In this document: piece after piece, positions 2,530 to 54,450 of the stretch
Layout of the letters: the number at the start of each line of letters is the position of its first letter
How positions within the stretch are numbered: position 1 is the stretch's first letter
Assembly: GCA_000998805.1 (NCBI GenBank)
Contig: LCFC01000006.1
Coordinates: forward strand, 24,999-79,928
Origin: Parcubacteria group bacterium GW2011_GWA2_43_11
GTDB lineage: Bacteria; Patescibacteriota; Minisyncoccia; Phycocordibacterales; UBA12088
DNA: 54,930 nucleotides
Direction: 5' to 3'
Translations under genes and position numbers: made by a program
Notes under the pieces: generated by a model
Seen by the model: the letters and a program-made list of their open reading frames with translations, nothing else
Told to the model about the DNA's origin: nothing
Database searches by the model: none

Positions 2530-2532
2530 TTT

Positions 2533-3024: not shown

Positions 3025-3034
3025 ATCAAAAACA

Positions 3035-3056
3035 GCCCCGTAAGGGGCGAGTTTTC
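3035..3056 (+). terminator. Hairpin terminator after the DUF3800 pair
   Basis: gcccc gtaa ggggc followed by gagtttt. Confidence 0.45.
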
Positions 3057-3164
3057 GGACTCCTTTTACCTAGGTAAATGAGATGTTTGTAGTATAACAA
3101 AAATACATCTATTTTCAAGTGTCAACAAACGTAATGTGGATAATGATGACAATAAAAAAAATAG

Positions 3165-3235
3165 GGGGCTACACGAATAGCTGTTAAGTTATCCACAACC
3201 ATTTCGTCGATATCAACGAAATGGTTTGGTTTGTT
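3165..3235 (+). pseudogene. Short dinD-like remnant
   Basis: gttaagttatccacaaccatttcgtc...cgaaatggtt matches dinD at 8768-8815. Translates to VIHNHFVDINEMV versus VIHNHFVLTDEMV and is flanked by stops. Confidence 0.4.
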
Positions 3236-3399
3236 TGAGTATTGGAAGATGCTCTTAAACCCAAAACATAAAAAAGAAGTGAAGGTAGTCACAAAATTCA
3301 GTGTTCTTGACGATGGTGACACTGTTTGTAAAATGGGGAAGATCTTGGAAACTACACACACTCTTCAAAACACCTGCGTATCAATAAAAATTGAAAATT

Positions 3400-5172: not shown

Positions 5173-5206
5173 AGTGTTTAAATTTCTTGAAGATTGTTGA
5201 TTTGTG

Positions 5207-5393
5207 GTAGAGGATATCCAATGTTCTGAAGAGTGTTTTGTGGAATACGTGAGCGAACTCCTTTTTCTTCCAGTTGACATTACGTCACATGGACCGACGG
5301 CATTTGATAAACGTGAAAGAGTGCAGATGCAGTTAGCTGCATAAGAATTCTTTCAATACTAACCGACTAGTTTTTAGTTGGTTAGTTTGTGTT
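5207..5393 (+). repeat. Right copy of the 187-bp direct repeat (orphan purA 3' fragment)
   Basis: See 937-1123. Not attached to any purA body. Confidence 0.9.
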
Positions 5394-5449
5394 GTACAAA
5401 AGTTAGACCGCACAGGATAAATCGAGTGCGGTCTAAGGTAGAGATGAGC

Positions 5450-5899
5450 TTACAGTTGAACAAAAGGGTATTGAAGCATATCTTCAAAACTGTTTACTAA
5501 CTGCTTAAAAAGGTCTTGTTGCTCTGGACACGGTCCAAAAAGTATTCCAGATTCGTTTTTTAAAGAATGAAACCAAAGGGTCATACACGCTTTGTTTTCT
5601 TCGGGCTTTTCCCAAAAGAGCATTTTTCCAAAAGAGCCAAGTTGAAAACAGTCCGGCATAACTTTTGACGGGTGGTCTGCATCTTCAAGTTCTTTTTGCA
5701 TATCCACATGAGGGATTGGTCGCACATCTTCTTTATTGACTACATGTCTTTGCAGAGTGCCTGCTGGAGGTACGTGATATATTTCAAGTCTGGTATCGAA
5801 AATATTTACCCGTATTGAACCTCCGAAATTCTGTGGAGATGTTTCGTCGAACACTACCCCTGTGTATTTTCCTTGGAAATTAAAAATGTCAGTAGCCAC
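5450..5899 (-). CDS. Hypothetical protein
   Basis: Strong RBS aaggagg before the ATG. Hairpin agaccgcac...tgcggtct lies downstream at 5404-5436. Confidence 0.6.
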   Translation of the reverse strand: MATDIFNFQGKYTGVVFDETSPQNFGGSIRVNIFDTRLEIYHVPPAGTLQRHVVNKEDVRPIPHVDMQKELEDADHPSKVMPDCFQLGSFGKMLFWEKPEENKACMTLWFHSLKNESGILFGPCPEQQDLFKQLVNSFEDMLQYPFVQL

Positions 5900-5950
5900 A
5901 TCTTCCTCCTTGGTTGATTGTGAATGTCAAAATTTATGCAAACCTACGTA

Positions 5951-6364
5951 TCATGCGTGTTCTTTTGGTTCTATCTCATAAATAGTTACTCCACCATCTG
6001 CGAGCACAAATACTTTAAAGTGCCCTTCGGTTGGTTCTTTAGTAGCTGCATCAGCAATGTTTGGACTCATCCCAGCTACAATGTTACATATGCCCCAACC
6101 AGCAATTCCTTTGGCCGTAAGCTCTACGTTTGTTGCATGATTTGCTTCCCAATCATATCCAGGCATGAGAAAGTCAACAAGTGGTTTCCATTTGGATTTA
6201 ACTTGTATACAGACTACGACAAGTTCCGTGTTGCTTTTTTTATGTACATTGAGCGCTCGCCAAGCAAAATGTTGCAAACGGGAGTAGGATTCCGTGTACA
6301 TTTTTTTACGATATTCAGCTTCTTTGGAAAGTACTGTGTTCGGGGGAATTATTCCAGTTGCCAT
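5951..6364 (-). CDS. Hypothetical protein (start MATGIIPP)
   Basis: Internal ATG at 6364 preceded by ggaga. The longer ORF reaching 6439 lacks an RBS. Confidence 0.5.
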   Translation of the reverse strand: MATGIIPPNTVLSKEAEYRKKMYTESYSRLQHFAWRALNVHKKSNTELVVVCIQVKSKWKPLVDFLMPGYDWEANHATNVELTAKGIAGWGICNIVAGMSPNIADAATKEPTEGHFKVFVLADGGVTIYEIEPKEHA

Positions 6365-6542
6365 AAATTTTCTCCAAGGGTTGAGTTTTAGGAAAGCCTT
6401 TCTGAACGATACTGTACGCAGAGTGGGCAACACTGTCAATCAAGTAGAGTAAACATGTCTTACATGTAACTTCCAAATATAACACTAACAAAACACTCCA
6501 CCCTTGCGGGTGGAGTGTGTTTACTAAGGAGGTGACTTAGAA

Positions 6543-6890
6543 TTATACAGAGTTAATCTGTTTAAACATTCGCTCAATAGTAAGGTCCATTATAAAAGCA
6601 ATTACTTGTTCTCGAGGAATATCGGTAACGTCTTCAACTCGAAAGTTACGTGTACAAGAATCATCATCTTCATCATCCTCATCGGGAATGCTGATTATTC
6701 TTTCCGCAATCTCCGCAGCACTGTAAAACTTTTCACCGTTTCTAATTCGCTCATCAAGATTGGCACCAAATTCCTTTTCGTACGTACAGTACGCACGTCT
6801 GATAGCCAGCTCTGTCTTGTTTGCAGGTTGTTGATTCCTGAACTCACCAAGAGTTACTGGTTGAGGAAGATAGATTTTTGTAAAGTCCAT
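6543..6890 (-). CDS. Hypothetical acidic protein
   Basis: RBS aaggagg before the ATG. Contains a DEDDEDDD tract. Confidence 0.55.
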   Translation of the reverse strand: MDFTKIYLPQPVTLGEFRNQQPANKTELAIRRAYCTYEKEFGANLDERIRNGEKFYSAAEIAERIISIPDEDDEDDDSCTRNFRVEDVTDIPREQVIAFIMDLTIERMFKQINSV

Positions 6891-7011
6891 TCATGCCTCC
6901 TTTGTTTTAGTCTTTTTTATCCTCAGAAAGTTATAAAAAAACATTTCTATGTAAATAATGCCATGTTCTTTAACTTGAGTAAATTTACCCTACCCAAAAC
7001 AAGACTGCCTT

Positions 7012-7190
7012 CTGGCTTGAAGCCGATAGGGCAGTTGTAAAAAAGTGGAAGAGTTGCCTTTCGATAAAACCAGGATTCCATCTCCCACACGTAGACTTGT
7101 ATCCGGGAGGAAAAGCCTCGTTGTACTCATGCCCGCCATACTTTTCCATCAAGAAATACGTTATTTCGCAGAACGATATGAAAATAAAAA
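7012..7190 (-). pseudogene. Remnant of the 3' end of a paralogue of gene 1236-1586
   Basis: About 180 bp align with 1190-1371, same orientation. Peptide CEITYFLMEKYGGHEYNEAFPPGYKS is conserved. No N-terminal part, and the stop is lost. Confidence 0.6.
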
Positions 7191-7259
7191 GGTGCGATAT
7201 TGATACAAAAAGAATAGCCCCGCAATACATGCGGGGCTATGTTTGTGAGGTTTATTGTA

Positions 7260-7571
7260 TCATTTTTTTGGCTTGCTGAACTTGAAGTATGCACTGTAGT
7301 CTTCACAGTACCCAGGTTTGTCGTACTTTACTTCCCAGCCTTTCTTGCGGTAGATGTCTTCTACATCCAACCAATGACGATTGTAAATTTCTCTTTCGTT
7401 GAAACCACTTTCTACTAAACGCTTTACGACAACATTCTGATGAATTATTGCGCTGTATCCGTCAAATTTTTCAGTGATCAGCGAATTGAACACCTCAAAT
7501 ACGGTGTCAGGAATTGACTCCTCACGATTTTTGACTACTTCCTGTGGACTTATTGCTTTACTGTTCGCCAT
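7260..7571 (-). CDS. Hypothetical protein (103 aa, start MANSKAIS)
   Basis: RBS agaggag before the ATG at 7571. Divergent from the regulator gene. Confidence 0.55.
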   Translation of the reverse strand: MANSKAISPQEVVKNREESIPDTVFEVFNSLITEKFDGYSAIIHQNVVVKRLVESGFNEREIYNRHWLDVEDIYRKKGWEVKYDKPGYCEDYSAYFKFSKPKK

Positions 7572-7682
7572 GATATTCTCCTCTTTTGAATGAACTTGAA
7601 TGACCCTGTTGTAGAATAGAGGCAAACAGAGAAGTATGCAGAAAAGCTTGTATAAGTGTAACAAATAAGATACACTTTAGAT

Positions 7683-8408
7683 ATGGAGTTACAGGATATT
7701 TTTAAACGACTCGGGTATCCTAAAAATACTGATACGGTATATCGCACACTGAGTATTAGCAAGGAACCTCTTTTAGTGAGTACTATTGCTCAACATGCCA
7801 ACGTTTCGCGAATGGTAGTATACCGTTGTCTCCTGAAGCTTGAAGAGTCAAAGCTTGTGAGTAGAAGTGTCATCGGTCGTCGTACTTTTTATGCACTTCT
7901 GAATCCGCGCAGACTTAAGCAACTCATAGCGATGTGCGAAAAAGAATCAGGAGAGGTGATAGAGAAGTACGCAAAAGAACGAGAAAAAGAGGTGCCACAA
8001 AGCATTCGTTTTATGTATGGAGCTTCTGGTATTCGTTCAGCCTTTGATGACGTACTAGCTCACACTAAAAAAGGCGATACGTTCTTTCGTTACACATCAG
8101 AGCGCGATCTTGCTCGGGTGAATAGATACTTAGCTCGTGACTATCGCATACGCAGAGACAAGAAAAAACTCGAACGACTTGTTATAAGTAACCCCGTTTC
8201 AGGTAAACAAAAAAAATCACGACTTGAGCGATTTATAAAATTCATCCCTAGAGAGGTAGACCTGTTTGAGCAGGATATTATCCAACTCATCTACGGAAAC
8301 CGTGTCACAATCATTAACCTTAACACTGAAGAGGTGTTCGTGATTGAGAACAAACAACTTGCTGATTTTCAGAAAACAATATTTAACTTGCTGTACAAAA
8401 AATTGTAA
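7683..8408 (+). CDS. Winged-helix (TrmB-like) transcriptional regulator
   Basis: N-terminal VYRTLSISKEPLLVSTIAQHANVSRMVVYRCLLKLEESKLV resembles a wHTH domain. Family assignment is by eye. Confidence 0.5.
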   Translation: MELQDIFKRLGYPKNTDTVYRTLSISKEPLLVSTIAQHANVSRMVVYRCLLKLEESKLVSRSVIGRRTFYALLNPRRLKQLIAMCEKESGEVIEKYAKEREKEVPQSIRFMYGASGIRSAFDDVLAHTKKGDTFFRYTSERDLARVNRYLARDYRIRRDKKKLERLVISNPVSGKQKKSRLERFIKFIPREVDLFEQDIIQLIYGNRVTIINLNTEEVFVIENKQLADFQKTIFNLLYKKL

Positions 8409-8612
8409 TTACTTTGACAAAATTATTCCGATATGTATGCGTCACTAGCTTCATAAGGTGTTTAAATTTTTTGGAGGAATCGGTCACAAGGGAATTGGGG
8501 TCACCCACGCAGGATTACAGGCATACCCTTTATTAAACGTATGCTTGCCTACAGTATAAAGACGCGCACGCAGTATCTTGGTAAGAATTATGGTAACATT
8601 TAAGTAATAAGT

Positions 8613-9425
8613 ATGGCTGAAAACAAATTTGAAACAATAAAAAGATTGGATGACAATGGTGCCGAATATTGGTCATCTCGCGACCTTGCTAAGGTGCTTG
8701 AATATCCTGATTACAGAAAATTTCTAAACGTGATTGAGAAAGCTAAAGTTGCTTGTGAAAATAGTGGTGAAGTTATCCACAACCATTTTGTCCTTACGGA
8801 CGAAATGGTTCAGATTGGATCAGGAGCAGAAAGAGCAATAGATAGCATATATCTTTCACGTTATGCCTGTTATTTAATTGTTCAAAACTCTGACCCTACC
8901 AAGGTTGTTGTGGCTAAAGGTCAGACATATTTTGCTATCCAAACTAGGAGGCAAGAAAAAGCTGATAATCTTATTGAAGATAACAATCGTGTTTTCTTGC
9001 GCGAACAAATGAAAAAACACAATACTAGTCTGATGCAAACCGCTTCTATGGCTGGGGTTGAGAGTTATGCAATATTTCAAAACGCTGGGTATAAGGGATT
9101 GTATGGAGGTCTTACAATGCAGGATATTCACGAAAGAAAGAAACTTAAGAAATCACAAAAAATTCTTGATCACATGGGAAGTGAAGAACTTGCAGCAAAT
9201 CTTTTTCGTGCAACACAAACAGAAGCTAAAATAAAACGTGATAAAGTTCACGGTCAAGGTAATGCGAGTCTTGCACATATGCAAGTCGGTCAGAAAGTAC
9301 GCAACACAATCCAAAGTTTGGGAGGTACTATGCCGGAGAACCTGCCATCTGTTGACGGAGTCGGCAAAGCAAAGACTCGCATAAAGAAGGTGCAGAAGAC
9401 GAAAAGGGTGGGGAGGGGAAGTTAA
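8613..9425 (+). CDS. dinD: DNA damage-inducible protein D
   Basis: Collinear with E. coli DinD as I recall it: SRYACYL.VQN.DP, GQTYFAIQTRRQE, IFQN.GY.GLYGG, KILDHMGS.ELAANLFRATQTE, LGGTMPE.LP. Confidence 0.85.
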   Translation: MAENKFETIKRLDDNGAEYWSSRDLAKVLEYPDYRKFLNVIEKAKVACENSGEVIHNHFVLTDEMVQIGSGAERAIDSIYLSRYACYLIVQNSDPTKVVVAKGQTYFAIQTRRQEKADNLIEDNNRVFLREQMKKHNTSLMQTASMAGVESYAIFQNAGYKGLYGGLTMQDIHERKKLKKSQKILDHMGSEELAANLFRATQTEAKIKRDKVHGQGNASLAHMQVGQKVRNTIQSLGGTMPENLPSVDGVGKAKTRIKKVQKTKRVGRGS

Positions 9426-9861
9426 AAATAAGCTAATATCCATAATTATCGCTAAATTTAAGTTATGTTTATACCAAAGTGGGTAATTATCTTATTTGTT
9501 ATCTGTTAGAACTGGGGTCAGACCCCACACAAAATTTCAAAAATGTGGTCTATTTTTTAAAGCATCTGATTATAAATGTATGTTTCGCGTGCTGTATATA
9601 GGTATCTTTCCTTACAACGTAAATATGCCTTTGCGATTTGTTTACGACTACTGTCGTTCACAAATAACGCAAAGCTTTTCGATGTCGGGTATCGACGATA
9701 CGTCATTAAGTAAATTCGTCACAAGCTCCTCATTTACTAAGTGCGTTTCGTCTAGGCTCAGCTGTGCTTAAGCACATGCTTCCGCCTTTCGATACCCCAC
9801 GTAACGTGCATTGGCACGTTACTCCATCTCCACCAAAAAACCGCCCTCAAAGGCGGTGTTT

Positions 9862-32502: not shown

Positions 32503-32639
32503 GCGAGTTGAAAGTTAAAAGTTCAAAGTTAAAAGTTCACAAACGCGGTTGGGTTTCGCCGAAGGCGAAATTGCTTCCAACTTTTACCCCGTACCAGAGC
32601 AAGCTCGGTACAGGGCATGCTTTTAACTTTCAACTCGTC
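32503..32639. repeat. GTTGAAAGTTAAAAG-family structured element R1
   Basis: gcgagttgaaagttaaaag at 32503-32521 pairs with cttttaactttcaactcg at 32620-32637. The interior holds the hairpins cgcc-gaag-gcg and ccgtacc..ggtacagg. Confidence 0.8.
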
Positions 32640-33845: not shown

Positions 33846-36329
33846 ATGGCAAAAGAGGATAAAAAGAAATCACCATCAATAGAAAATGGGGAGGGGAAAC
33901 AAGATGCGTCAGTGATAGCATGCCCCATTACTGGTGAAATGCGGGAATCCTATCTTGCATATGCTATGTCAGTTATCACACAGAGAGCCCTTCCTGATGT
34001 GCGGGATGGTCTAAAGCCAGTGCATCGCCGTATTCTCTACACAATGCATAAGATGGGGTTGGTCTCCAGTGCAAAGTTTCGTAAGTCAGCAGCAGTGGTA
34101 GGAGATGTGCTTGGTAAATACCATCCACATGGTGACACAGCAGTATATGATGCACTTGTAAAATTGGCTCAAGAATTTACCACTCGGTATCCACTTGTGC
34201 TCGGACAAGGAAACTTTGGTTCTATTGATGGAGATAGTCCTGCTGCTATGCGTTATACCGAGGCAAAAATGACCAAGATTTCAAGTGAGATGCTTCGTGA
34301 TATAGAAAAAGAGACCGTTGAGTGGCGTCCAAACTATGATGAAACTCGTGATGAGCCAATTGTGCTTCCAGCCGCGGTCCCGAACTTGCTTCTCAATGGA
34401 ACGCTTGGTATCGCCGTGGGAATGGCAACAAATATTCCTCCGCACAACTTAAACGAAGTTGTCGATGCGTGTATTCACCTCATCAATAACCCCGATGCCT
34501 CCCAAGATGAAATCTTTAATCTTGTAAAAGCCCCGGATTTTCCTACTGGTGCCGTTATCTTTAACCAAAAAGATATTAGACATGCGTACGCTACAGGAAA
34601 AGGTCCTATGGTGGTGCGTGGCGAAGCGGAAATAGTGGAGAATAAGAAAGGTGCTTTTTCTATTATCATTACTTCGCTACCCTATCGCGTGAATAAGTCA
34701 GAGCTTATCAAGCGTATGGCGAATCTCGTGACTCAAAAGAAACTTGAGGGTGTGCGTGATTTACGAGACGAATCAACGAGAGATATTCGGATAGTGGTAG
34801 AGCTTAAAACAGGAGCACAACCACAGAAAGTCCTCAACTACCTATACAAACATACCGCATTAGAAGACACGTTCCACCTTAACCTTGTTGCACTTGTGGA
34901 TGGTGTTCCGCAGACTCTATCACTTAAAGGAGTTTTGGATGAGTTTGTGACGTATAGAAAACTTGTGGTTAAGCGTCGATGTGAATTTGATCTTAAAAAA
35001 GCACAGGCACGAGAGCATATCCTACTTGGTCTAAAAAAAGCACTCGATAATATAGATGCGATAATTAAAATCATCAAAACGTCAAAAGACGTTCCGCTTG
35101 CGAAAGCGGCCATGATGAAAAAGTTTTCTTTTTCTGATATTCAGGCGACTGCAATTCTTGAAATGCGCCTCCAAAAACTTGCCGGACTTGAAAGAATTAA
35201 AATTGAAAATGAACTAAAAGAAGTTCAGGCTCTTATAAAATGGCTTGAGTCTCTCCTAAAGAGCGAGAAAAAAATGGCGGAGCTTATTAGAGGTGAGTTT
35301 GAAGAAGTAAAAGCAAAATACGGCGACGAACGAAGAACACGTGTTATCAAGGGTCCAGTTAAAAACATGACCCCTGAGGATATGATTGCTGAGGAGGAAA
35401 GTGTTTTGGTGATTACCCGTGGTGGCTATATCAAGCGTACAAACCCTGATGAGTACAAAAAACAAAAGCGTGGAGGTGTAGGCGTGATAGATCTCAATAC
35501 CAAGGAGGAAGATTTTGTAACTATTTTTCTCACCGCAAGTACGCATGATGACCTTCTCTTTTTTACAGATAAAGGTAAGACATATCAAATCAAGATGTAT
35601 GATGTACCTGAGGGAAAGCGTGCTACAAAAGGAAAGTCGGTAATGAATTTTCTTCCACTTTCTGCTGATGAGTCAGTAACGTCTGTCGTTGCAATGACAA
35701 AAGAACTAAAAGAAAGTGACGGTTCACTTCTTATGGTTACAAAAGGTGGAATTACAAAAAAGACGAAAGCAAAAGATTTTCATGACGTTCGCCTTTCTGG
35801 CATTATCGCCATAAAGCTCGCACCTGGTGATAAGCTAATACAGGCAAGTTTTGTAGAAAAGGGTGATACGGTGCTGTTGGCTACTAAAAAAGGCCAGTCA
35901 ATACGTTTTAATGAAGCTGACGCGCGAGAAATGGGGCGAGCTGCAGCTGGTGTGCGTGGAGTAAAGCTTGGTACTGGAGACGTTGTAATTGGAGCTGATA
36001 TTGCCCTAAAGGGTACAAAAGATAAAGAACTTTCACTACTAGTGGTGTCTGAAAACGGTTATGGAAAACAGACAGCACTTTCTGAGTTTAAAGTACAGAA
36101 ACGAAGTGGATCTGGAATAAAATGCGCAAGTACGACAACAAAAACAGGTACCTTGATGGCAAGCAGAATCCTTACTCGAGACATTGAGGAGCTTGTGGTA
36201 ATTTCTAAAAAAGGTCAAGTAATACGGACTGATATAAAAGAAATTCCTTCAATGGGTCGTTCAACACAGGGTGTGCGGATAATGAAGCTACGAGCTGGGG
36301 ATTCCATTGCCGCAATCATCTGTCTCTGA
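33846..36329 (+). CDS. gyrA: DNA gyrase subunit A
   Basis: [26 protein letters not shown] (catalytic Tyr region) and C-terminal beta-pinwheel repeats. Confidence 0.97.
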
Positions 36330-36425
36330 GTTAAAAGTTGAAAGTTCACTAGCCCGCATACGCGGGCTAGTGTGTTCAACGAAGGTGAGGGTACTTTCAA
36401 CTTTTAACATTTAACTTTCAACTTA
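36328..36425. repeat. GTTGAAAGTTAAAAG-family element R2
   Basis: gttaaaagttgaaagt at 36330-36345 pairs perfectly with actttcaacttttaac at 36394-36409, around hairpin cactagcccgc-atac-gcgggctagtg. An extra half copy ttaactttcaac follows. Confidence 0.8.
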
Positions 36426-40268: not shown

Positions 40269-40407
40269 AAAGTTGAAAGTTTAATGTTAAAAGAAGAAAC
40301 CGCTAGCTGGCGGAGAATTAGAAAAAAGGAAATGTTCTAGTGCAAGTCCTCTTCTCGGCCAAAACAATAATCGCGAAATGCTTGTCGCATTCCGCTCTTT
40401 TGTTTTG

Positions 40408-40550: not shown

Positions 40551-40588
40551 ACAAATAAAAAGAACCTTTGAAAGGTTCTTTTTATTTG

Positions 40589-40669
40589 TGCCGAGGAGAG
40601 GACTTGAACCTCCATGGGTCACCCCGCTTGCTCCTAAGGCAAGTGCGTCTACCATTTCGCCACCTCGGC
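40589..40669 (-). tRNA. tRNA-Leu (TAG)
   Basis: GCCGAGGTGGCGAAATGGTAGACGC, anticodon loop CTTAGGA, long variable arm, GGTTCAAGTCC. No encoded CCA. Confidence 0.85.
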
Positions 40670-40912
40670 ATAACGAAAGTATTCTACACTACTTTATAAA
40701 TAATTGCATTTACCCGCACACTAACAACACATGATAAATGTGTATATGTTATGTAGTAGAATGTTAGTGTGCGGGTTTACTCACACACTGTCCTAACCAT
40801 TATTTTGCTATTATATATAAACACCACTATTGTAATCTAAGTATATGTTGTGCAATTTTATGGTGAGTGTGCGGGTTTACATTATCCATAATTTGTTCTA
40901 AACTATCGCAAT

Positions 40913-40985
40913 CCGCCCATAGCTCAGCTGGTAGAGCAGTCGCCTCTTAAGCGAACGGTCGTAGGTCCGAGTCCTACTGGGCGGA
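40913..40985 (+). tRNA. tRNA-Lys (CTT)
   Basis: Acceptor CCGCCCA/TGGGCGG (C1-G72), D arm GCTCAGCTGGTAGAGC, anticodon loop CTCTTAA. Confidence 0.8.
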
Positions 40986-41323
40986 CTTGAGTAAAATATA
41001 ATAACCACACTTTTTGTGTGGTTATTATATTTTAGAACGCAAACTATTTTGCGTTCGTACTCAAGTCCGAAGCGGAAACATGTTCCATAGGAGCAGTTGA
41101 GCTGGGGTAGCGAGCACTTAGTTTTTGAGGAGTCTGTGACGAAAAAACTTAGTGACTCGTGACGACAGCGTAAAAAAATCAGTGCCTGTGCACTGATTTT
41201 AACATTTCAAAACGGGGAACTCAGTACATGGTACTCAATTATAGACAAATTTATTTTAGTAATTAAAATTACGGCTTAATGTAAGTAAATTTTAATACTC
41301 CAAATTATCTCAATCAAAAATGC

Positions 41324-41351
41324 TTGACAATTATCTAGGATAGTGTATACT
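41324..41351 (+). promoter_or_regulatory. Sigma70-like promoter of an orphan transcription unit
   Basis: TTGACA at 41324-41329, 16-nt spacer, TATACT at 41346-41351. Confidence 0.55.
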
Positions 41352-41689
41352 ACTTGACAGTTAGAACATTTTTATAGAGACATATTCACTCTGGGCTTTT
41401 TACAAAGCACACTGCAAATATGGGTGTTTCGGAGGCAGTATATGCTAACGGAAAACCAGAAACTTATCTTATGATAAGGAATACTGTTTCATTGTGCAGT
41501 AGAAGTTCGAAGCTTATTTTTTTGAAGTATCTATTTTTTGTAGGACCACCAATAGGCATGTGGAACAGAATTATTTTACGTAGTACGTGGTACGATGTAA
41601 AGTGGAATTACCTCATCGAAGAAGTTTCTCCGAACACCTGTGTGTCAGAATATCGACACATACTTACTTACTTAGCACACCAACCCCCC

Positions 41690-41729
41690 AGTAGCCGAGT
41701 CTGTATTTTGGACCGGCTACTTTATTTTT
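41690..41729 (+). terminator. Intrinsic terminator
   Basis: gtagccg...cggctac followed by tttattttt. A second perfect palindrome gatacctatttccgcg/cgcggaaataggtatc lies at 41761-41796. Confidence 0.65.
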
Positions 41730-41883
41730 ATATATATCATAAATTTAAAGAAAACTAAAAGATACCTATTTCCGCGACCGCGGAAATAGGTATCTTCTTT
41801 GTTTGGATATGTTGAAAACTATGTATGTAGGAATATATAAACTTTGATTCTTCCGCATTTTCTAGTATTCTTTGTTTGTGCAT

Positions 41884-41967
41884 GCCCGGGTGGTGAAATT
41901 GGTAGACACGCAAGACTTAAAATTTTGTGGCCGTAAGGCCATGCGGGTTCGATTCCCGCCCCGGGCA
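41884..41967 (+). tRNA. tRNA-Leu (TAA)
   Basis: GCCCGGGTGGTGAAATTGGTAGACAC, anticodon loop CTTAAAA, variable arm, GGTTCGATTCC. No encoded CCA. Confidence 0.85.
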
Positions 41968-41986
41968 CAAGAGCGAAGCGAATTGG

Positions 41987-42142
41987 GTTCGGGGAGTACT
42001 GTGCCTATGCACAGTACGTCGGGAATCGAAAGGCGCAGGCATATCGCCTTGCGATACCGAGCATAGACGAAACGCACTTAGGATTTGAGGAGTTTACGAC
42101 GAATAATACTTAGTGACGTATCGTCGATTCCCGCCCCGGGCA
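41987..42142 (+). repeat. Foldback unit U1 with tRNA-Leu(TAA)-derived termini
   Basis: 5' is GTTCGGG-GAG, a hairpin (tactgtgc-ctat-gcacagta), then CGTCGGGAATCGAAA. The 3' end is TCGATTCCCGCCCCGGGCA. The ends pair 7/7 with two G.U pairs. Confidence 0.75.
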
Positions 42143-42172
42143 CAGTTTAACGAACATAGTGAGGAAAACTGT

Positions 42173-42305
42173 GTTCGGGGAGAACGCAACCAATGTTGCG
42201 TTCGTCGGGAATCGAAAAGATTGATTATATTTTCGAAGAGCTTGCTCAGAGAAAATTTGAAATCTGTACCGTTCATGTAATGAAAGATTCCTGCCCTGGG
42301 CACCA
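42173..42305 (+). repeat. Foldback unit U2 with tRNA-Leu(TAA)-derived termini, ending in CCA
   Basis: 5' is GTTCGGG-GAG, a hairpin (aacgcaa..ttgcgtt), then CGTCGGGAATCGAAA. The 3' end is GATTCCTGCCCTGGGCACCA. Confidence 0.7.
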
Positions 42306-42447
42306 GAAAGGAAAAAACAAGCGGTTTTGGTTCGCTTTGCTTTGATCGGCGACTAATTTGTTTTCAATTTTAGGAGAAGATAATTTATTAATCCAAAAGA
42401 GCCAATAAACGTCTATAAACAAGGCTATTTTATTTGCCAGAGCGAGC

Positions 42448-42476
42448 TTGACAGGAGTATTTTAATATGCTATATT
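42448..42476 (+). promoter_or_regulatory. Sigma70-like promoter of the GC-rich orphan gene
   Basis: TTGACA at 42448-42453, 17-nt spacer, TATATT at 42471-42476. Confidence 0.6.
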
Positions 42477-42620
42477 TTTGCCCTAATAGGGATTATTTAG
42501 CTCTTTTACAGCAGAGATAGACGCTTTTACTCGATAGCAACGCATTCTGTATCTACCACTAGGTATGTAATGCGTTGCTAGAATCGAGTAAACAAACACA
42601 CCTAACAAAAGGAGAATATT

Positions 42621-43241
42621 GTGGAAACCGAACGAACATTTAACATTCTGGAAACGTGCTGTTTTCCAAAGGGATGTCTCATCCCTGAGGATCTTCAGCC
42701 TTACTTGGCGACAGTCCTCATCCCGCAGCTCGAAGCGGCGGGCATAAAAACAGCCGAGTGGACTCGCGGTGCGCTGATGTTGGAAGAGCCCCACCTGTCG
42801 AAGGTCAGGGGTATCGTCTGCAGACAGTGCAACATCCGCGAGTGTCCGTTTAATCCGCACTTCAAGCCGACCGATGGTCTCAGCGACCTGATGGACGGAC
42901 AGTACGCGGATCGCATCGAGAGAGGTGACCAGCTTCTCGCACAGCTTCTTCCTGAAGCGAAGAAGACGGAACTCGAGCATAAAGGAATCAAGGTCATCGC
43001 GTTTCAGATGCCCTCGAGGAAGAACCCCAAGCTCGTGTTCTCGTTCACTCGGAACGACAAGACGCGTCGGGTGAGCTGTGAAGTCGGCAAGCGCCGTCTC
43101 TTGACGGACGAGGGCGAGGAAACTCTGCTCTCGCTCGAACAACTTGATCAGAAGATCGGGGAAGCGATTCGCGGGTTGACCATCTACACCGCTCTCCTTA
43201 CTCTCGATCAAACGATCGGTCTGCAAATCAGGCAAAACTGA
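42621..43241 (+). CDS. Hypothetical protein (206 aa), GC-rich foreign-looking gene
   Basis: aaggag RBS 6 nt before the GTG. Terminator at 43258-43303. Contains CRQCNIRECPFNPH. No family recognised. Confidence 0.6.
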   Translation: METERTFNILETCCFPKGCLIPEDLQPYLATVLIPQLEAAGIKTAEWTRGALMLEEPHLSKVRGIVCRQCNIRECPFNPHFKPTDGLSDLMDGQYADRIERGDQLLAQLLPEAKKTELEHKGIKVIAFQMPSRKNPKLVFSFTRNDKTRRVSCEVGKRRLLTDEGEETLLSLEQLDQKIGEAIRGLTIYTALLTLDQTIGLQIRQN

Positions 43242-43257
43242 TTTCGGCTCGGCCAAC

Positions 43258-43303
43258 GGCCTCGACTGCGGCATCCAATGCTGTGGTCGAGGCCTTTCTT
43301 TTT
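43258..43303 (+). terminator. Intrinsic terminator
   Basis: ggcctcgac...gtcgaggcc followed by tttcttttt. Confidence 0.75.
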
Positions 43304-43567
43304 GGTTAATTTTTTGATAAATTAAATTCATAATTGAATCCCGTCAAAAAAAACTTAAATTGTCAGCGGTGCGGCTCCGCCACCTTTCCGAATTTTCGCG
43401 GGGGGATTTCTTTGCCCCGAAGGTGGCGAAATGTGTTCGGACTAATTCAAGAATAGTGCACAGTTTAACAAGCGCAGTGAGGAAAACTGTGCTCGGGGAG
43501 AACACAAGCATTGTGCATTGGCACATTGCTTGCGTTCTCAAATTACTCGCATTGTGAGTTAAATTTG

Positions 43568-43798
43568 AGGCCTGGGCGGGGATCGTCCCAGAATTGCGGA
43601 TATTTTTATTGTGATGAATCACTAAAAAATATCTCGCATTCTCGGACGGCCACTCGCTGTCTTTCGTATCCTCAAGACATGCTCCGTGGCTTGACCAATT
43701 TTTCTTATGATCCGCCAGCGGGCGAAGAGTTAGAAAAATGGAAATAACCTCGTGTCACGATTCCGCACGTACTGTGCGTAGGTACAGTACTCCAAACC
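43568..43798 (-). repeat. Foldback unit A with tRNA-Cys-derived termini
   Basis: Minus-sense 5' is GGTTTGG-AG, a hairpin (tactgtac-ctac-gcacagta), then CGTGCGGAATCG. The 3' end is GATCCCCGCCCAGGCCT. The ends pair 7/7 with two G.U pairs. Carries the X and W hairpin modules. Confidence 0.75.
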
Positions 43799-43837
43799 TC
43801 AAATCAAAATGCACCTAGTGAGGTGCATTTTGATTTG

Positions 43838-43994
43838 AGGCCTGGGCGGGATCGTCCCAGAATCGCGGATATTTTGCTCCAAGTATTCGCAAAATATACT
43901 CGCGTTCTTGGACGGCCACTCACTGTTGCTTTGCAACAGGCTCCGTGGCTTCGATTCCCGACGCAAGCAAAGCAGTTTGCTTGGCTCCCAGGCA
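43838..43994 (-). repeat. Foldback unit B with tRNA-Cys-derived termini
   Basis: Minus-sense 5' is TGCCTGG-GAG, a hairpin (caagcaaa-ctgc-tttgcttg), then CGTCGGGAATCGAA. The 3' end is GATCCCGCCCAGGCCT. Carries the X and W modules. Confidence 0.75.
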
Positions 43995-44024
43995 TGAAAA
44001 AACCGCAAAGCGGTATTTTCAGTG

Positions 44025-44096
44025 AGGCCTGGGCGGGAATCGAACCCGCGCATGTCGGTTTTGCAGACCGAAGCGTTACCTCTTCGCCACCAGGCC
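44025..44096 (-). tRNA. tRNA-Cys (GCA)
   Basis: GGCCTGGTGGCGAAGAGGTAACGC, anticodon loop CTGCAAA, GGTTCGATTCC. Terminator accgc-ttt-gcggt lies downstream at about 43997-44019. Confidence 0.85.
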
Positions 44097-44237
44097 AATA
44101 TTCTATTGTAAATTAAGTAAGGGTTCGATTCCATCGATCCTTACAGGATCAGTACACCTTGTCGCTATTCTTCCTCGTGCTCTCGAAGAATATCTGGCAA
44201 GGTCTTGCGGAGCTCCATGTATTCGCTCCTCACCCCC

Positions 44238-44283
44238 ACACGTCGGCTTTTAGACCGAAGCGTTACCTCTTCGCCACCAGGCC
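44238..44283 (-). pseudogene. Duplicate of the tRNA-Cys 5' half (no T arm)
   Basis: agaccgaagcgttacctcttcgccaccaggccaatat is identical to the real gene plus 5 nt of upstream flank. The anticodon region has changed to CTAAAAG. Confidence 0.7.
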
Positions 44284-44467
44284 AATATGTAATACTTTCC
44301 ACACTTAACTGTTCGGTATTGCTAATTTCATGGATTGCTTCGCTTGCGAGCTCGCAATGACGAGCCATTACTTGAAGCAGGTATATTCATTTTCTCAGCA
44401 CTGAAGCGTTACTTCATCCCGCCATGGGACGGGACAAGCTTCACCACTGAGCCATTCCGACAGTGTA

Positions 44468-44791
44468 TCACTCAGCGAGCAATTCATCTACTCTTCGGCG
44501 ACTTTTTTCCCCTTCGTCAATCATAAATTCAACATGAGGGATGTGGTTCATCTTGGATTTTTCTTTTAGATACTTTTTACACTCTCCTCGTTTTCGCATG
44601 AGAAAACCGAGAGCAGGACCTTCCGCTGTTTCAGGAAATACGGAAACGTAAAACGTTATCTTGTCGAGTGAGTGAGTGAGCTCGGTATTCGTAATAGTGA
44701 TAAGGGATGTTTTGTTGGACTGTGTGTTTACATATGCTGCAGCCAGCTCTTGCAAGTGCTGGGTAAGTACAGTGTGTCGTTGTTGGCTCAT
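44468..44791 (-). CDS. rbfA: Ribosome-binding factor A
   Basis: About 107 aa directly downstream of infB. ITITNTELT.....ITFYVSVF pattern. Confidence 0.75.
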   Translation of the reverse strand: MSQQRHTVLTQHLQELAAAYVNTQSNKTSLITITNTELTHSLDKITFYVSVFPETAEGPALGFLMRKRGECKKYLKEKSKMNHIPHVEFMIDEGEKSRRRVDELLAE

Positions 44792-51993: not shown

Positions 51994-52266
51994 TCATTCC
52001 TCGAACTTTGAGAAAAATACGGAAGCCACATTTTGTTCCTCTCTGTGTTCGTCAAGAAAGTGCAAATATGTCGCCCCCTTATGGTAGGAAATACCGAGGA
52101 GTGTAAAAGGACCTTGTCCGTAATCGTTTTGAAATATCTGAAGCATAATGCGAGAACTTACAAGTTCCGAATTTGGGTTCTTCCAGCTGATTTTTTCTCC
52201 CACAAGTACGCGTTTGATTGTTCCGTCTTCTTGTGTGAGTTCTGCCTTTTGTTCTATATGTGTCAC
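51994..52266 (-). CDS. Hypothetical protein (90 aa)
   Basis: aaggagg RBS 6 nt before the GTG. Hairpin acagccgg..ccggctgt downstream. Confidence 0.5.
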   Translation of the reverse strand: MTHIEQKAELTQEDGTIKRVLVGEKISWKNPNSELVSSRIMLQIFQNDYGQGPFTLLGISYHKGATYLHFLDEHREEQNVASVFFSKFEE

Positions 52267-52693
52267 GACACACCTCCTTTGGTAGGTTACATATTGATTT
52301 ATGAATACTCTAATATATTTCGTCTATTTGTCAAGGATTACGGATTATATGTGGCAAATTATGTCTTGTATAACAAAAAGAGCCTACAGAATAGACTCTT
52401 TTTGGTTTGTGTGGGTGGGCTTTGTCCCAGAGTTGCGGGAGAGATTTGGTCCAAGTCACTAAGTATTTTCTACGTACTACGTACTTGAAAAAACTAAGTA
52501 CTTGTATGCGCCGGTCGGGCTTTGTCCCAGAATCGTGGCTTTTTTATTTCGTACTTCATAAAAAAACTCACGTTCTTGGACGGCTTGGGAGGGATTTGCC
52601 CTCGAGTCACTAAATATTTTTTCTCGCTTCACTCGAAAAATATTAAGTGCTCGTCGGCACGGCTCAGCGCTCTCTCGTGCTTTGGCACGCGCG

Positions 52694-52800
52694 CTTCCGC
52701 CCGAGAATTGCGGATATGTTGCTCCAAGTATTCGCAACATATACTCGCATTCTTGGACGGCCACTCACTGTTGCTTCGCAACATGTTCCGTGGCTTGACC
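52694..52800 (-). repeat. X-W hairpin module, copy C
   Basis: Collinear with 43855-43950 (copy B) over about 95 nt. Substitutions in the stems are paired. Confidence 0.8.
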
Positions 52801-52876
52801 TAATTTTCAAGGAGAGTAGCGACTATGAAAATGGAAATACTCCTGTGGTGCAAATCCCTCCCGCAAGGTGTGCAAA

Positions 52877-53025
52877 CGCTGGGAGGGCTTTGGTCCAAGT
52901 CACTAAATATTTTGCTTCAAGTTTTCGCAAAATATTAAGTGCTTGCGACCCCGCCTCGCAGCCCCAATCTCCATTTCATTACGATTGGGGACCCGCTGCT
53001 CCGGCTTTCAAATCCCTCCCGGCGC
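52877..53025 (-). repeat. Foldback unit with tRNA-Tyr-derived termini
   Basis: Minus-sense 5' is GCGCCGGGAGGGATTTGAA. The 3' end is CAAAGCCCTCCCAGCGT, against CAAATCCCTCCCGGCGCA in the tRNA 3' end. Confidence 0.65.
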
Positions 53026-53074
53026 GACAAACAGCAACAGCCTGAAAGTTTTCACTTTCAGGCTGGCTGATTTG

Positions 53075-53158
53075 TGCGCCGGGAGGGATTTGAACCCCCG
53101 TAGGCATATAGCCGCTTGGTTTACAGCCAAGTGCGATTGACCACTCCGCCACCGACGC
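53075..53158 (-). tRNA. tRNA-Tyr (GTA)
   Basis: GCGTCGGTGGCGGAGTGGTCAATCGC, anticodon loop CTGTAAA, long variable arm, GGTTCAAATCC. Terminator cagcctgaaagt..actttcaggctg lies downstream. Confidence 0.85.
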
Positions 53159-53402
53159 ATTCCTCTACTATTTTCTTGAAAGCATTTCCACCCTTGTATT
53201 TCTTGATTTGCTTTTCTCTACTATATGCTTCTGCTTGGGTATTGTATATTTCAGTGCATAGTAACACAAATGGAGTTCTAAACTTTGTTGATTTATTGTA
53301 CCCACTGTTGTGTTGCTCTAGGCGTTTACGAACATCTTTTGAGCAACCAATGTAGTACCCTCCATCTTTTTTACTTTGTAAAATGTATACTGTCCAAGCC
53401 AT
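53121..53402 (-). CDS. GIY-YIG nuclease-family small protein
   Basis: VYILQSKKDGGYYIGCSKDVRKRLEQHN and AYSREKQIKKYKG are the GIY-YIG/URI signature. The last 38 nt overlap the tRNA-Tyr 5' part. Confidence 0.75.
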   Translation of the reverse strand: MAWTVYILQSKKDGGYYIGCSKDVRKRLEQHNSGYNKSTKFRTPFVLLCTEIYNTQAEAYSREKQIKKYKGGNAFKKIVEECVGGGVVNRTWL

Positions 53403-53514
53403 ATGCGATTGACTTCACCTTTACCCCGCAACTCTGCGGGGACCGACGCATAACACATGCAATATTAACACCATTTACTTGTCAATGGAAATAGGTACCT
53501 GGTATGCTTACCGT

Positions 53515-54450
53515 ATGAAATTCATATCAAAGGTTTTATTTTTTCTGCTATTTTTTGGAGTCTTTGCTGGTTTTATAACTGATCCCATTCATGCAGGACT
53601 TGTGCCGTGTGGTACGAGCGATAGGGTGTCTGGTGGCTTTCTTGAGGGTGAGTGTAGTTTCTGTGATTTACAGGTATTGGCCTTAAACATCTTGAATTTC
53701 TTGGTACTGATATCTGCTGTGGTGGCTGCACTCCTCTTTTTAAACGCTGGCTTTTTGTATATTACCTCTTCGGCAAATCCCGGAAACATTTCGAGAGCAC
53801 ACAAAATTTTTGGCAATACACTTGTGGGGATGATAATTATTTTTGCTGCATGGCTCATTGTTAGTCAGATAATGATAATACTCTACAAAGGTAGCCCTCT
53901 TTCAAGTATGGGAGATTGGAACACTATTTTGGATGGTTGCCAAAATGCGACCCCTACTAATCCCCCTACAAATCCTCCAACCAACCCACCTACTAATCCA
54001 CCTACAAATCCTCCAACTAATCCACCTACAAATCCCCCTGCGGAAGGAACGCTTTCTGACGCGGAGGCCCGGTCAGAGATAGACCCCTACTACAATGTGT
54101 GGGAGTCTGCTCCAGGTGCAACTTCATTTGAAGGGGTTCAGCAATCTACAATAGATGGGGCCATTGCCATTGCAGAACAGTCAGGAATACCAAAATCCGA
54201 ACTTACGATTACTGGAGCGGTTGATTCAGGTGGTGTACATGCTCCTGGTGAAATATCACATGGTACTGGATACAAACTTGATTTTGAAGACACCGCGTCT
54301 TTAAATAACTATTTTCAAAGTAGTGGTGATTTTGTTCGTGATGGATCAGTTAATGGGTATCCGAGGTATACTGGAACAATAAATGGTCAGCAAATAGTGG
54401 CAGTTTATGAAAACAGGACAAACACACATTGGGATGTTACTTTTTATTAA
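53515..54450 (+). CDS. Pilin-like (LVPCG-type T4SS_pilin) N-terminal domain fused by a PTNP-repeat linker to a putative LAS/M15-like peptidase domain
   Basis: Signal/TM, GLVPCGT...CSFCDL, two TM helices around SSANPGNISRAHK, then (PTNP)x7. The C-terminal part has SHGTGYKLD (H-x6-D) and THWD. Confidence 0.7.
   Translation: MKFISKVLFFLLFFGVFAGFITDPIHAGLVPCGTSDRVSGGFLEGECSFCDLQVLALNILNFLVLISAVVAALLFLNAGFLYITSSANPGNISRAHKIFGNTLVGMIIIFAAWLIVSQIMIILYKGSPLSSMGDWNTILDGCQNATPTNPPTNPPTNPPTNPPTNPPTNPPTNPPAEGTLSDAEARSEIDPYYNVWESAPGATSFEGVQQSTIDGAIAIAEQSGIPKSELTITGAVDSGGVHAPGEISHGTGYKLDFEDTASLNNYFQSSGDFVRDGSVNGYPRYTGTINGQQIVAVYENRTNTHWDVTFY
53952..54039 (+). repeat. 12-nt-period coding repeat (PTNP)n
   Basis: cctac(a/t)aatcc(n) is reiterated about 7 times. 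Confidence 0.85.

Follow-up and report, generated by a model that had tools for sequence, protein, structure and literature searches.

Genetic elements that integrate into tRNA and tmRNA genes, among them phages, ICEs and genomic islands, appear to share a common topology: the target is the 3' part of the gene, the gene stays intact, a direct repeat of its 3' end marks the far end of the insert, and the old flank lies beyond that distal repeat (Williams 2002; PMC9897764). tRNA fragments that persist as attR scars have been described (PMC9897764), and inserts can accumulate in tandem, as in the ssrA islands of Dehalococcoides (PMC3146451). A second group of elements, the CTX phage and other IMEX, encodes no recombinase of its own and uses a folded single-stranded attachment site, in which two target-like sites in inverted orientation, separated by a short spacer, can fold into a duplex that mimics the chromosomal target dif; a dependence on tandem copies is described for the CTX phage (PMC4246890, PMC3442271). 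Likewise, integron attC sites vary in sequence while conserving a hairpin with mismatches and bulges, and only one strand is active (PMC4792948). Here we analyze a double-hairpin module, X-W, in a 54,930-nt stretch of the genome of Parcubacteria group bacterium GW2011_GWA2_43_11 (assembly GCA_000998805.1, contig LCFC01000006.1, forward-strand positions 24,999 to 79,928; hereafter the window), and we find that it is the core of a non-coding unit located behind tRNA and tmRNA genes in many Candidate Phyla Radiation (CPR, Patescibacteria) bacteria.

Is the structure of the X-W module under selection? The original prediction, made from the sequence alone, placed copies A through E in the window and held that their paired substitutions point to a structure selected in RNA or single-stranded DNA rather than to palindrome decay. 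The five copies are found essentially where they were predicted, and the paired changes are genuine. The 4-bp segment is CGCG/CGCG in B, TGCG/CGCA in A and C, and CGTG/CACG in D, and the apical stems and the inner stem of W also co-vary. We built a covariance model of the W-X core from a four-sequence seed, because a first MAFFT alignment was structurally inconsistent in the apical stems. The model finds A at 43585-43692 (76 bits), B at 43854-43951 (82 bits), C at 52699-52796 (76 bits) and D at 52524-52612 (57 bits), while E is only the last 8 bases of X plus a degenerate tRNA-end copy (52409-52431). In total, the model finds 38 strong copies in the window and in CPR genomes, from at least five named CPR lineages. 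In these 38 cores, 97.6% of cells are paired, against 79.7% in shuffles and 28-46% when partners are slid; because the alignment was fitted to the model, the paired percentage leans upward. Twenty-five of 32 pairs change on both sides, and the covariation score is 0.406 against 0.108, and 0 of 500 shuffles reach the observed score. In 27 distinct X hairpins, the pair after GAA is C-G in 20, U-A in 6 and A-U in 1, and the next pair is G-C in 21, A-U in 5 and G-U in 1. A strand bias supports the same conclusion, with 20 G.U against 5 A.C pairs on the tRNA-sense strand, on which X also folds more stably in most copies. The unpaired motifs are conserved and asymmetric, and a double-stranded palindrome would not keep such asymmetric internal loops. 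The claim of a selected structure therefore holds and becomes much stronger. By contrast, the view that the copies are neutral debris, i.e., segmental duplications of a palindromic region that happen to keep pairing, draws only on the 91-92% identity of copies B and C; given the compensatory changes, the conserved loops and the strict genomic context described below, we consider it all but excluded.

Some details of the original prediction require correction. The flank described as constant and single-stranded, CCCAGAAT / TTCTYGGACGG, is the paired base of X. The motif TTGACC is the end of a nested insertion, V, which is present in A and C and absent from B, and the bases just outside X in A and B are copies of the 3' end of tRNA-Cys. 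Furthermore, the hairpins are read on the strand opposite to the one given in the prediction, and the prediction did not recognize that the module is one part of a larger tRNA-linked unit.

What is the organization of this unit? In the direction of the tRNA, it consists of a hairpin tip (an intrinsic-terminator-like palindrome or a GCGAAGC mini-hairpin); S', an inverted copy of the acceptor 3' strand, T-stem 3' strand and T-loop of the tRNA, split by a small hairpin, hp1; W; X or a Y-type hairpin; and S, a direct copy of the tRNA from C56 to just past the discriminator. The core is about 100 nt and each unit about 170-270 nt. Behind tRNA-Cys(GCA), at 44024..44096 on the minus strand (identified by ARAGORN; Rfam tRNA model, 67 bits), the last ~20 nt of the gene, from T-loop C56 to 2 nt past the discriminator, are here called S0. 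The tip of unit B (43997..44019) is a terminator-like hairpin read on both strands, AAAATACCGC-TTTG-GCGGTTTTTT. It is followed on the minus strand by S' (43950..43993), comprising GCCTGGG (43987-43993), hp1 CAAGCAAA-CTGC-TTTGCTTG (43964-43983) and CGGGAATCGAA (43950-43960). The W hairpin (43915..43949, minus strand) has the closing stem GCCAC/GUGGC and a conserved asymmetric internal loop, with GGAGC on one side and GUGA on the other. The X hairpin (43853..43914, minus strand) has the base CGUCC-A-AGAA / UUCU-G-GGACG with a conserved purine-purine mismatch. S (43836..43854, minus strand) is a direct copy of the tRNA-Cys 3' end, CGAT-CCCGCCCAGGCCTCA, followed by the ancestral type of flank (AAAT). 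Unit A follows: a perfect palindrome with 20-bp arms forms its tip (43797..43840), and it continues on the minus strand with a degenerate S' (43758..43801) composed of TGAGGTTTGG, hp1 GTACTGTAC-CTAC-GCACAGTAC (43769-43790) and GCGGAATCG; V (43693..43757; TGACAC...TTGGTC), a nested mini-insertion at CG|AA between S' and W; W (43649..43690); X (43584..43648); and a second direct copy of the tRNA-Cys 3' end as S (43566..43585). The end of X reads …ATTCTGGGA.

Units of the same plan stack in arrays. tRNA-Tyr(GTA), at 53074..53158 on the minus strand, heads an array of five to six units, all on the minus strand. Unit 1 (52877..53065) contains a terminator tip (53038-53065), S' GCGCCGGGAGGGATTTGAA (53007-53025), a W-like hairpin (52951-53005), a Y-type hairpin (52895-52947) and S (52877-52892). 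Unit 2, copy C (52704..52862), contains a partial S' (52851-52862), V (52797-52850), W (52760-52794) and X (52704-52759); the 3' end of X and the following S, S' and V are removed by a 97-nt deletion relative to L001, L002 and L004 (L and a number denote the loci used for comparison). Unit 3 (52583..52702) contains a W-like hairpin (52661-52702), a Y-type hairpin (52603-52653) and S (52583-52598). Copy D (52507..52582) is an X hairpin alone (52524-52582) plus S (52507-52523). The distal end of the array (52375..52503) contains a Y hairpin (52451-52503), S (52432-52448), copy E, the last 8 nt of X (52424-52431), a degenerate S (52409-52423) and a final terminator-like hairpin (52375-52403). Similarly, two units with a Y-type instead of an X hairpin lie behind tRNA-Leu(TAA) on the plus strand (41969..42303), with S copies at 42125-42144 and 42286-42303. 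A further unit follows the tmRNA gene on the minus strand (9680..9861) and reads terminator, TGGTGGAGATGG, hp1, GGGGTATCGAA, a W-like hairpin, a Y-type hairpin and CGATACCCGAC; it gives only a weak covariance-model hit (9694-9789, 31 bits).

The link to tRNA genes extends beyond the window. Of the 38 cores, 35 have a same-strand tRNA upstream, 27 of them within 56-141 nt, and twelve tRNA identities are represented. A copy of the last 14 nt of the gene, with at most 2 mismatches, lies downstream of 21 of 38 CPR tRNA/tmRNA genes, upstream of 0 of 38, and at 0 of 8 genes in non-CPR loci. An antisense T-loop/T-stem 12-mer lies downstream of 36 of 61 genes and upstream of 1 of 61. The loci were chosen because they contain X, and the fractions of tRNAs occupied are consequently biased upward. 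We considered whether the module is simply a duplicated tRNA with inserts, but S' carries the reverse complement of the T-loop and of the 3' acceptor strand, not the 5' strand. Likewise, reading the TCGA around the core as a target-site duplication was rejected as an effect of the palindromic T-loop, since TTCAAGT loops give inverted, not direct, flanks.

The topology of the units resembles integration. In relatives L125, L127 and L128, tRNA-Cys is followed directly by CAATAC, CAACAA or CAAAAG; L125 and L128 have no module, and L127 carries only a short terminator-like hairpin. In the window, that type of flank follows the distal S copies and not the tRNA. Thus, as in tRNA-integrating elements, a direct repeat of the tRNA 3' end bounds the insert, the tRNA stays intact and the ancestral flank lies beyond the distal repeat, although absence at tRNA-Cys in relatives could equally be loss by recombination between S0 and S. 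Units are also gained, lost or swapped between close relatives. L126 has the same Y-type unit as the window behind tRNA-Leu(TAA), plus a different unit inserted next to the tRNA and a 56-nt V insertion; this V is the same element as in unit A, present at a different position as a clean indel. Strain L002, which is 99.9% identical to the window elsewhere, carries a different allele of the unit next to tRNA-Tyr, with stems replaced in pairs and most loop sequences kept, while the distal array is identical. The 97-nt indel has unit-level boundaries. Finally, the W-X cores at tRNA-Cys and tRNA-Tyr are 91-92% identical over 93-99 nt while their flanks match the local tRNA, so simple segmental duplication fails as an explanation; this high similarity within a genome could, however, be gene conversion rather than movement.

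In contrast to known tRNA-integrating elements, the units contain no integrase or any other gene, the same conserved hairpin core is found at at least 12 different tRNAs, an inverted copy of the tRNA end lies inside the unit, and the structure shows covariation of the single-strand type. Clustering of the neighboring ORFs in 23 CPR sources (22 loci plus the window) revealed no recurrent partner family and no recombinase, transposase or replication gene with the units, only syntenic housekeeping genes and, in two sources, a small GIY-YIG protein. The one transposase seen, of the IS110 family in locus L020, belongs to an insertion sequence that has its own subterminal inverted repeats and interrupts a unit at ATTCG|AAGC, and an IS110 origin of the module was therefore rejected. 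As in CTX-type elements, S0 and S' are two target-like sites in inverted orientation, and the predicted fold with the tRNA included pairs the tRNA 3' half with S'. Where S0 and S differ, S' matches the tRNA in 15 cases and the distal S in 2, indicating that S0 and S' belong together. However, the target is a tRNA T-arm and acceptor region rather than dif, and the element is about 40 times smaller. Compared with attC, the base of X is CGTCCRAGAA / ATTCTGGGACG in 38 of 38 copies, there are no GTTRRRY / RYYYAAC core sites, no cassette ORFs lie between units, no integron integrase is nearby, and the units are tied to tRNA genes. Nor do the units fit the definition of a MITE, with fixed terminal inverted repeats and a short target-site duplication: the inverted sequences at the unit ends are copies of the local tRNA that differ from site to site, and the duplicated stretch is about 19-20 nt and starts at C56.

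We propose, with about even confidence, that the X-W double hairpin is the conserved core of a family of miniature, non-autonomous integrative elements that insert at the T-loop and 3' end of tRNA and tmRNA genes, a kind of mobile element not yet described in the literature we searched. In this inferred mechanism, the element carries a replacement 3' end (S0) that restores the intact tRNA, while the original 3' end is displaced to the far side as S, as at attL and attR of tRNA-integrating islands. We further infer that the active form is single-stranded on the tRNA-sense strand, where S0-tip-S' would fold into a duplex that mimics the double-stranded target, as the folded attP(+) of phage CTX does for dif; that W and X are handles recognized by a recombinase or nuclease encoded elsewhere in the genome; and that new units enter next to the tRNA, so that older ones are pushed outward and decay. 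A DNA-level, single-stranded form is hinted at by the position of the units behind bidirectional terminators, by the absence of a predicted sigma-70-like promoter, and by the hairpin tips, in which triloops dominate (17 and 21 of 38), mostly closed by C-G. About a third of the triloops have a GNA loop (GAA, GTA, GCA), the C-GNA-G form that is probably also that of the very stable DNA mini-hairpin d(GCGAAGC), although this argument rests on presumed thermodynamics rather than on a test. Neither the single-stranded form nor the enzyme has been demonstrated, and, without read-level data, no free or circular form and no copy on a phage or plasmid was found, a scan of 2.9 million viral contigs for X giving 0 hits. 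In addition, since each unit carries tRNA-specific S0 and S', the model does not explain how one family serves at least 12 different tRNAs; gene conversion within the S0-tip-S' palindrome is only a guess. More tentatively, it is possible that the units are a previously unrecognized class of minimal mobile element, a gene-less circle or rod of single-stranded DNA (or RNA) of about 170-190 nt whose only specificity device is a folded copy of the T-arm and acceptor 3' strand of a tRNA, which a host enzyme integrates into the T-loop of the matching tRNA or tmRNA gene, and which has colonized most tRNA genes across the CPR.

The main alternative is that the unit is a functional structured RNA, made by read-through from the tRNA gene or from an unrecognized promoter on the tRNA strand, whose S' segment pairs with the 3' half of its own tRNA or of the precursor. 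Such an RNA could, for example, control 3' maturation, folding or turnover, or be excised by RNase P and RNase Z as a tRNA-like molecule. Covariation, the G.U bias and conserved purine-rich internal loops (GSARS / NYGA in W, GAG...GAA in X) are what a functional RNA shows, and the orientation relative to the tRNA, the complementarity of S' to the functional tRNA and the conservation of the family across several CPR lineages are consistent with this view. The unit alone is predicted to fold into an acceptor-like helix, hp1, a T-like helix, W and X with z = -5.8. However, most units begin behind a strong terminator-like hairpin with no predicted promoter. The helix that would close the RNA, S' with S, is not maintained, since S decays while S' follows S0. 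S' is a plain reverse complement that erases G.U identity pairs, for example A3-U70 instead of G3.U70 at tRNA-Ala, and GCGCCGG rather than GCGUCGG at tRNA-Tyr. The units are dispensable at the same tRNA in close relatives, stacked in decaying arrays, and interrupted by V and by an IS110 element. In searches against Rfam 15, only tRNA and tmRNA pass the gathering threshold, and permissive scans of 41800-44500 and 52000-53600 give only far-sub-threshold hits to generic hairpin (microRNA precursor) models. We therefore regard the RNA reading as the less likely of the two.

Two further alternatives were considered. First, the hairpins could be resident, host-maintained DNA repeats of the REP/BIME kind, recognized as single-strand hairpins by a domesticated nuclease or transposase and spread and homogenized by gene conversion and unequal crossing-over, with the tRNA-end copies as by-products of palindrome extension next to tRNA terminators. 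The arrays are indeed modular, with interchangeable hairpin types (X, Y, W, hp1, V) and alternating sense and antisense tRNA-end copies; cores are more alike within a genome than between genomes; no element-borne gene was found; and templated repair within a hairpin could produce the paired stem replacements seen between strains. Bacterial MITE-like and REP-like repeats (REP/BIME, BOX, Correia, RPE, and the small dispersed repeats of Nostoc; Elhai 2008) also appear to be short, non-coding, hairpin-forming, modular and nested, in intergenic positions often after terminators. However, REP-type repeats do not seem to be tied to one kind of gene, whereas here the link to tRNA and tmRNA 3' ends and the start of S at C56 are very strict, the flanking repeats are copied from the target in both orientations, and the family is conserved across several phylum-level lineages. 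Moreover, templated palindrome correction should erase the internal loops and mismatches, yet these are conserved across CPR lineages, and the extra proximal unit in L126 is of a different type and not a copy of its neighbor. This alternative is unlikely. Second, W-X or the Y-type hairpin could be the scaffold of a guide RNA and the adjoining S its guide, following the logic of TnpB omega-RNAs or of the homing crRNA of type V-K CRISPR-associated transposons, which probably also matches tRNA genes. A scaffold of about 100 nt is followed at once by 16-20 nt identical to the target, and the Tyr array reads as repeated hairpin-plus-S units. Nevertheless, no TnpB, IscB or Cas gene appears in any of the 23 CPR sources, and Rfam omega-RNA and related families do not match. 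The intact tRNA keeps the full target next to its natural 5' context, so a nuclease guide would attack the host's own gene, and S decays while S' is kept, the opposite of what a guide would show. We consider this reading very improbable.

CPR bacteria have genomes of about 1 Mb with little non-coding DNA, yet here 200-700 nt behind most tRNA genes, and behind the tmRNA gene, are filled with one conserved, structured, non-coding element family that is absent from Rfam. If the units are mobile, they would be among the smallest integrative elements known and would give a new example of target mimicry by a folded single strand; if they are instead RNAs, they would be a widespread partner of tRNAs in a major bacterial radiation. 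Either way, the covariance model provides a direct handle for surveying them. The units also account for the tRNA fragments that confuse tRNA annotation in these genomes. Finally, we note that they explain local genome rearrangement: relative to L127, the tRNA-Leu(TAA) and tRNA-Lys genes are inverted in the window, and a fragment of a Leu-type unit abuts the Cys array.

What is the extent of the two-hairpin module within the window? All five copies named in the original prediction are present, and a covariance model of the two hairpins (W and X) recovers copy A at 43585-43692, copy B at 43854-43951, copy C at 52699-52796 and copy D at 52524-52612, while copy E is a remnant of 8 nt. The paired base changes that had been listed for these copies are correct. 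The organism is a member of the Candidate Phyla Radiation (CPR); the same contig occurs in Rifle groundwater metagenomes, and the closest named RbfA homologue is from a Candidatus Pacebacteria genome. The gene content is typical and includes small T4SS-pilin paralogues, ClpB, IF-2 and RbfA. We note that one 323-aa protein with a T4SS-pilin domain (53479-54450) contains a 12-nt periodic repeat (53941-54048) encoding P-T-N-P-type repeats.

The module is conserved far beyond this genome. A scan of one genome per prokaryotic species for the two halves of the base of X returned mostly chance hits, but it also returned 24 true hairpins, all of them from CPR genomes labelled Paceibacterota, Parcubacteria, Kaiserbacteria, Nomurabacteria or Saccharibacteria, and a metagenome scan added 15 loci. 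A covariance model (R1) built from four sequences finds 38 strong, distinct W-X cores. On their alignment, 97.6% of cells form standard pairs, against 79.7% in shuffles and 28-46% when partners are slid; 25 of 32 pairs change on both sides, and no shuffle in 500 reaches the observed covariation. The alignment is fitted to the model, which inflates the paired percentage, but the slid controls and the count of pair types are not explained by that. Neutral debris is excluded as an explanation of the copies. Read on the strand of the neighboring tRNA, the helices hold 20 G.U and 5 A.C cells, and X folds better on that strand in most copies. The unpaired parts are conserved and asymmetric: they comprise a purine-purine mismatch in the base of X, a bulged A, G-S-A-R-S opposite N-Y-G-A in W, and GAG ... 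GAA around a mini-hairpin at the apex of X. The proposal, made in the original prediction, that the structure is selected in a single strand is therefore supported, and the relevant strand is the minus strand of the window at both loci.

The original prediction did not, however, recognize the genomic context of the module. A tRNA gene lies upstream on the same strand of 35 of 38 cores; 27 of these lie 56-141 nt away, the rest are further out in arrays, and the tRNAs are of twelve identities. One apparent exception, in locus L015, follows a tRNA that is interrupted by a group I intron (5717-5979; Rfam, 60 bits), which is why ARAGORN missed that tRNA. In the direction of the tRNA, every unit begins with a tip hairpin, which is either terminator-like or AGAGCGAAGCGA, and continues with the reverse complement of the tRNA's acceptor 3' strand; then AGC, the small hairpin hp1 and GCGU; then the reverse complement of the T-stem 3' strand and the T-loop; then W and X; and lastly a sense copy of the tRNA from C56 to one or two bases past the discriminator. 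Hereafter, S0 denotes the functional tRNA end, S' the inverted copy and S the distal sense copy. The inverted copy tracks the local T-loop variant (TTCGATT, TTCGAAT, TTCGAGT or TTCAAGT), and it uses the complement of the 3' strand even where the tRNA has a G.U pair. It is therefore an inverted duplication, not a second tRNA.

Among 61 tRNA/tmRNA genes of CPR loci, the antisense T-part is found downstream in 36 and upstream in 1, and the sense 3' end is found downstream in 37 and upstream in 4, while none of 8 tRNAs in the non-CPR loci has such a copy. In the window, 6 of 7 tRNA/tmRNA genes carry such units, including the tmRNA gene. Several terminal hairpin types replace X in otherwise similar units, namely a Y type and at least two others in the CPR loci L020, L061 and L126. 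In L061, a 144-aa ORF of unknown function (612-1046) lies between two units that both carry the 3' end of the same tRNA-Ser, and it may be cargo of a larger member of the family. In L125, two to three tandem repeats (5455-6050) lie behind tRNA-Leu(TAA), each holding a unit plus a 5'-truncated tRNA-Leu copy that starts in the D-loop; some events therefore duplicate much more of the tRNA than the last 20 nt.

tRNA genes here also collect fragments on their 5' side. An exact 37-nt duplicate of the 5' half of tRNA-Cys (44252-44288 versus 44065-44101; 5' end to anticodon loop, plus 5 nt of leader) lies 187 nt upstream of the gene, and it is followed by a degenerate remainder and by a hairpin containing GGAATCGAACCC. 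On the minus strand at 53121-53450, a 93-aa GIY-YIG nuclease ORF (53121-53402) is inserted in the 5' part of tRNA-Tyr; its last 13 codons run into the tRNA, the stop codon lies in the anticodon loop, and a displaced copy of the tRNA 5' end, itself split by a hairpin, lies upstream at 53404-53450. L002, a strain closely related to that of the window, lacks the whole insertion, which looks like a homing-endonuclease cassette that targets the other end of the same tRNA gene. Downstream of the tmRNA gene lies an island-like stretch (1-9860) that carries Bro-N, DUF3800 and SWIM-finger proteins and a truncated adenylosuccinate synthetase, and that contains internal repeats (934-1123 versus 5204-5393 at 97%, 1221-1352 versus 7039-7170, and 3176-3233 versus 8760-8817). 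It is probably a decayed integrated element at ssrA.

Comparison with relatives provides evidence for gain, loss and exchange of units. In three relatives (RbfA 84%, 70% and 70% identical), tRNA-Cys is followed directly by CAATAC, CAAAAG or CAACAA and, after at most a short terminator-like hairpin (in relative L127), by the promoter of tRNA-Leu. In the window, that kind of flank (TCAAAT) follows the two distal copies of the tRNA end, while the tRNA itself is followed by unit sequence. This is the topology of an insertion that brings its own tRNA 3' end, or of its precise loss. Behind tRNA-Leu(TAA), L126 has the same Y-type unit as the window, but it also has an extra unit of another type between it and the tRNA, and a 56-nt insertion (V) at AGACG|AAACGC; V occurs in the window at AATCG|AAGCC in unit A, the unit containing copy A. 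Strain L002 is 99.9% identical to the window over 18 kb, yet the unit next to tRNA-Tyr is a different allele, in which the stems of the tip, of the W-like hairpin and of the Y hairpin are replaced in a paired way while most loops and linkers are kept and the rest of the array is identical. A 97-nt indel with unit-level boundaries separates the window from L001, L002 and L004, and the W-X cores at tRNA-Cys and tRNA-Tyr are 91-92% identical over 93-99 nt while their flanks match the local tRNA. A REP-like resident repeat is a possible but doubtful alternative.

In L020 (4500-5860), an IS110-family insertion sequence encoding a 345-aa DEDD / Transposase_20 protein is inserted in the antisense T-loop of a unit (ATTCG|AAGC); its subterminal inverted repeats are CATAGAACCCTG and CAGGGGTTCTATAG, and the units may serve as its target. 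In relative L127 the genes tRNA-Cys, Leu(TAA), Lys and Leu(TAG) all lie on one strand, whereas in the window, at 40588-43560, Leu(TAA) and Lys are inverted, a 282-aa ORF with no Pfam match (42483-43331) lies between them and tRNA-Cys, and a fragment of a Leu-type unit (43458-43540, plus strand) abuts the Cys array. This suggests inversions with breakpoints inside the unit arrays.

To which partner does S' belong? Where S0 and S differ, S' matches S0 in 15 cases and S in 2. The helix that would close a free-standing RNA (S' with S) is therefore not what is kept; the S0-tip-S' palindrome is. A guide-RNA reading of the units is very unlikely. Folding shows both possibilities: the unit alone closes with S':S (z = -5.8), but with the tRNA included, the minimum-energy structure pairs the tRNA 3' half with S' and the tRNA 5' half with the distal S. 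A functional RNA linked to tRNA maturation remains a serious rival explanation, although we consider it the less likely one. The units start behind hairpins that score as terminators on both strands, and no sigma-70-like promoter is predicted in the Cys region. Terminal loops are mostly triloops closed by C-G, about a third of them with a GNA loop (GAA, GTA, GCA), and some tips are GCGAAGC; such loops are probably a hallmark of very stable DNA mini-hairpins and do not appear to be favored in RNA. These points favor a single-stranded DNA form, but they are indirect, and the G.U bias fits either nucleic acid.

How might the units have arisen? The layout tRNA(S0)-tip-S'-hp1-W-X-S is what results if a small circular molecule carrying S0-tip-S'-hp1-W-X recombines within S with the sense strand of the tRNA gene, and we infer that this is the most likely mechanism, although the enzyme is unknown, no free form has been seen in the absence of read-level data, and the retargeting of one family to many tRNAs is unexplained. 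In single-stranded form, S0 and S' would fold into a duplex copy of the target, as phage CTX does with two inverted dif-like sites, a host recombinase and replication of the product (PMC4246890; PMC3442271). W and X, whose bases are invariant in sequence although paired, would be the protein handles. In this scheme, new units enter at the tRNA and older ones move outward and decay, as in the Tyr array. Nothing in Rfam 15 matches the units, and our literature searches found no description of them, whereas the general phenomenon of tRNA fragments left by integrating elements is well known (PMC9897764). We place the units among the tRNA-targeting integrative elements, as a form not found in those searches, and we tentatively suggest that there is a real chance that they represent a new class of gene-less single-stranded mobile element.

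Finally, we note that a short AT-rich motif, AGTTGAAAGTTAAAAGTTCAAAG, whose meaning is unknown, recurs in intergenic positions of the window (32506-32542, 36329-36351 and 40271-40293), and that a LOOT RNA (Rfam RF03000, 82 bits), which is unrelated to the units, is present at 6173-6290 in a Kaiserbacteria contig (L022).
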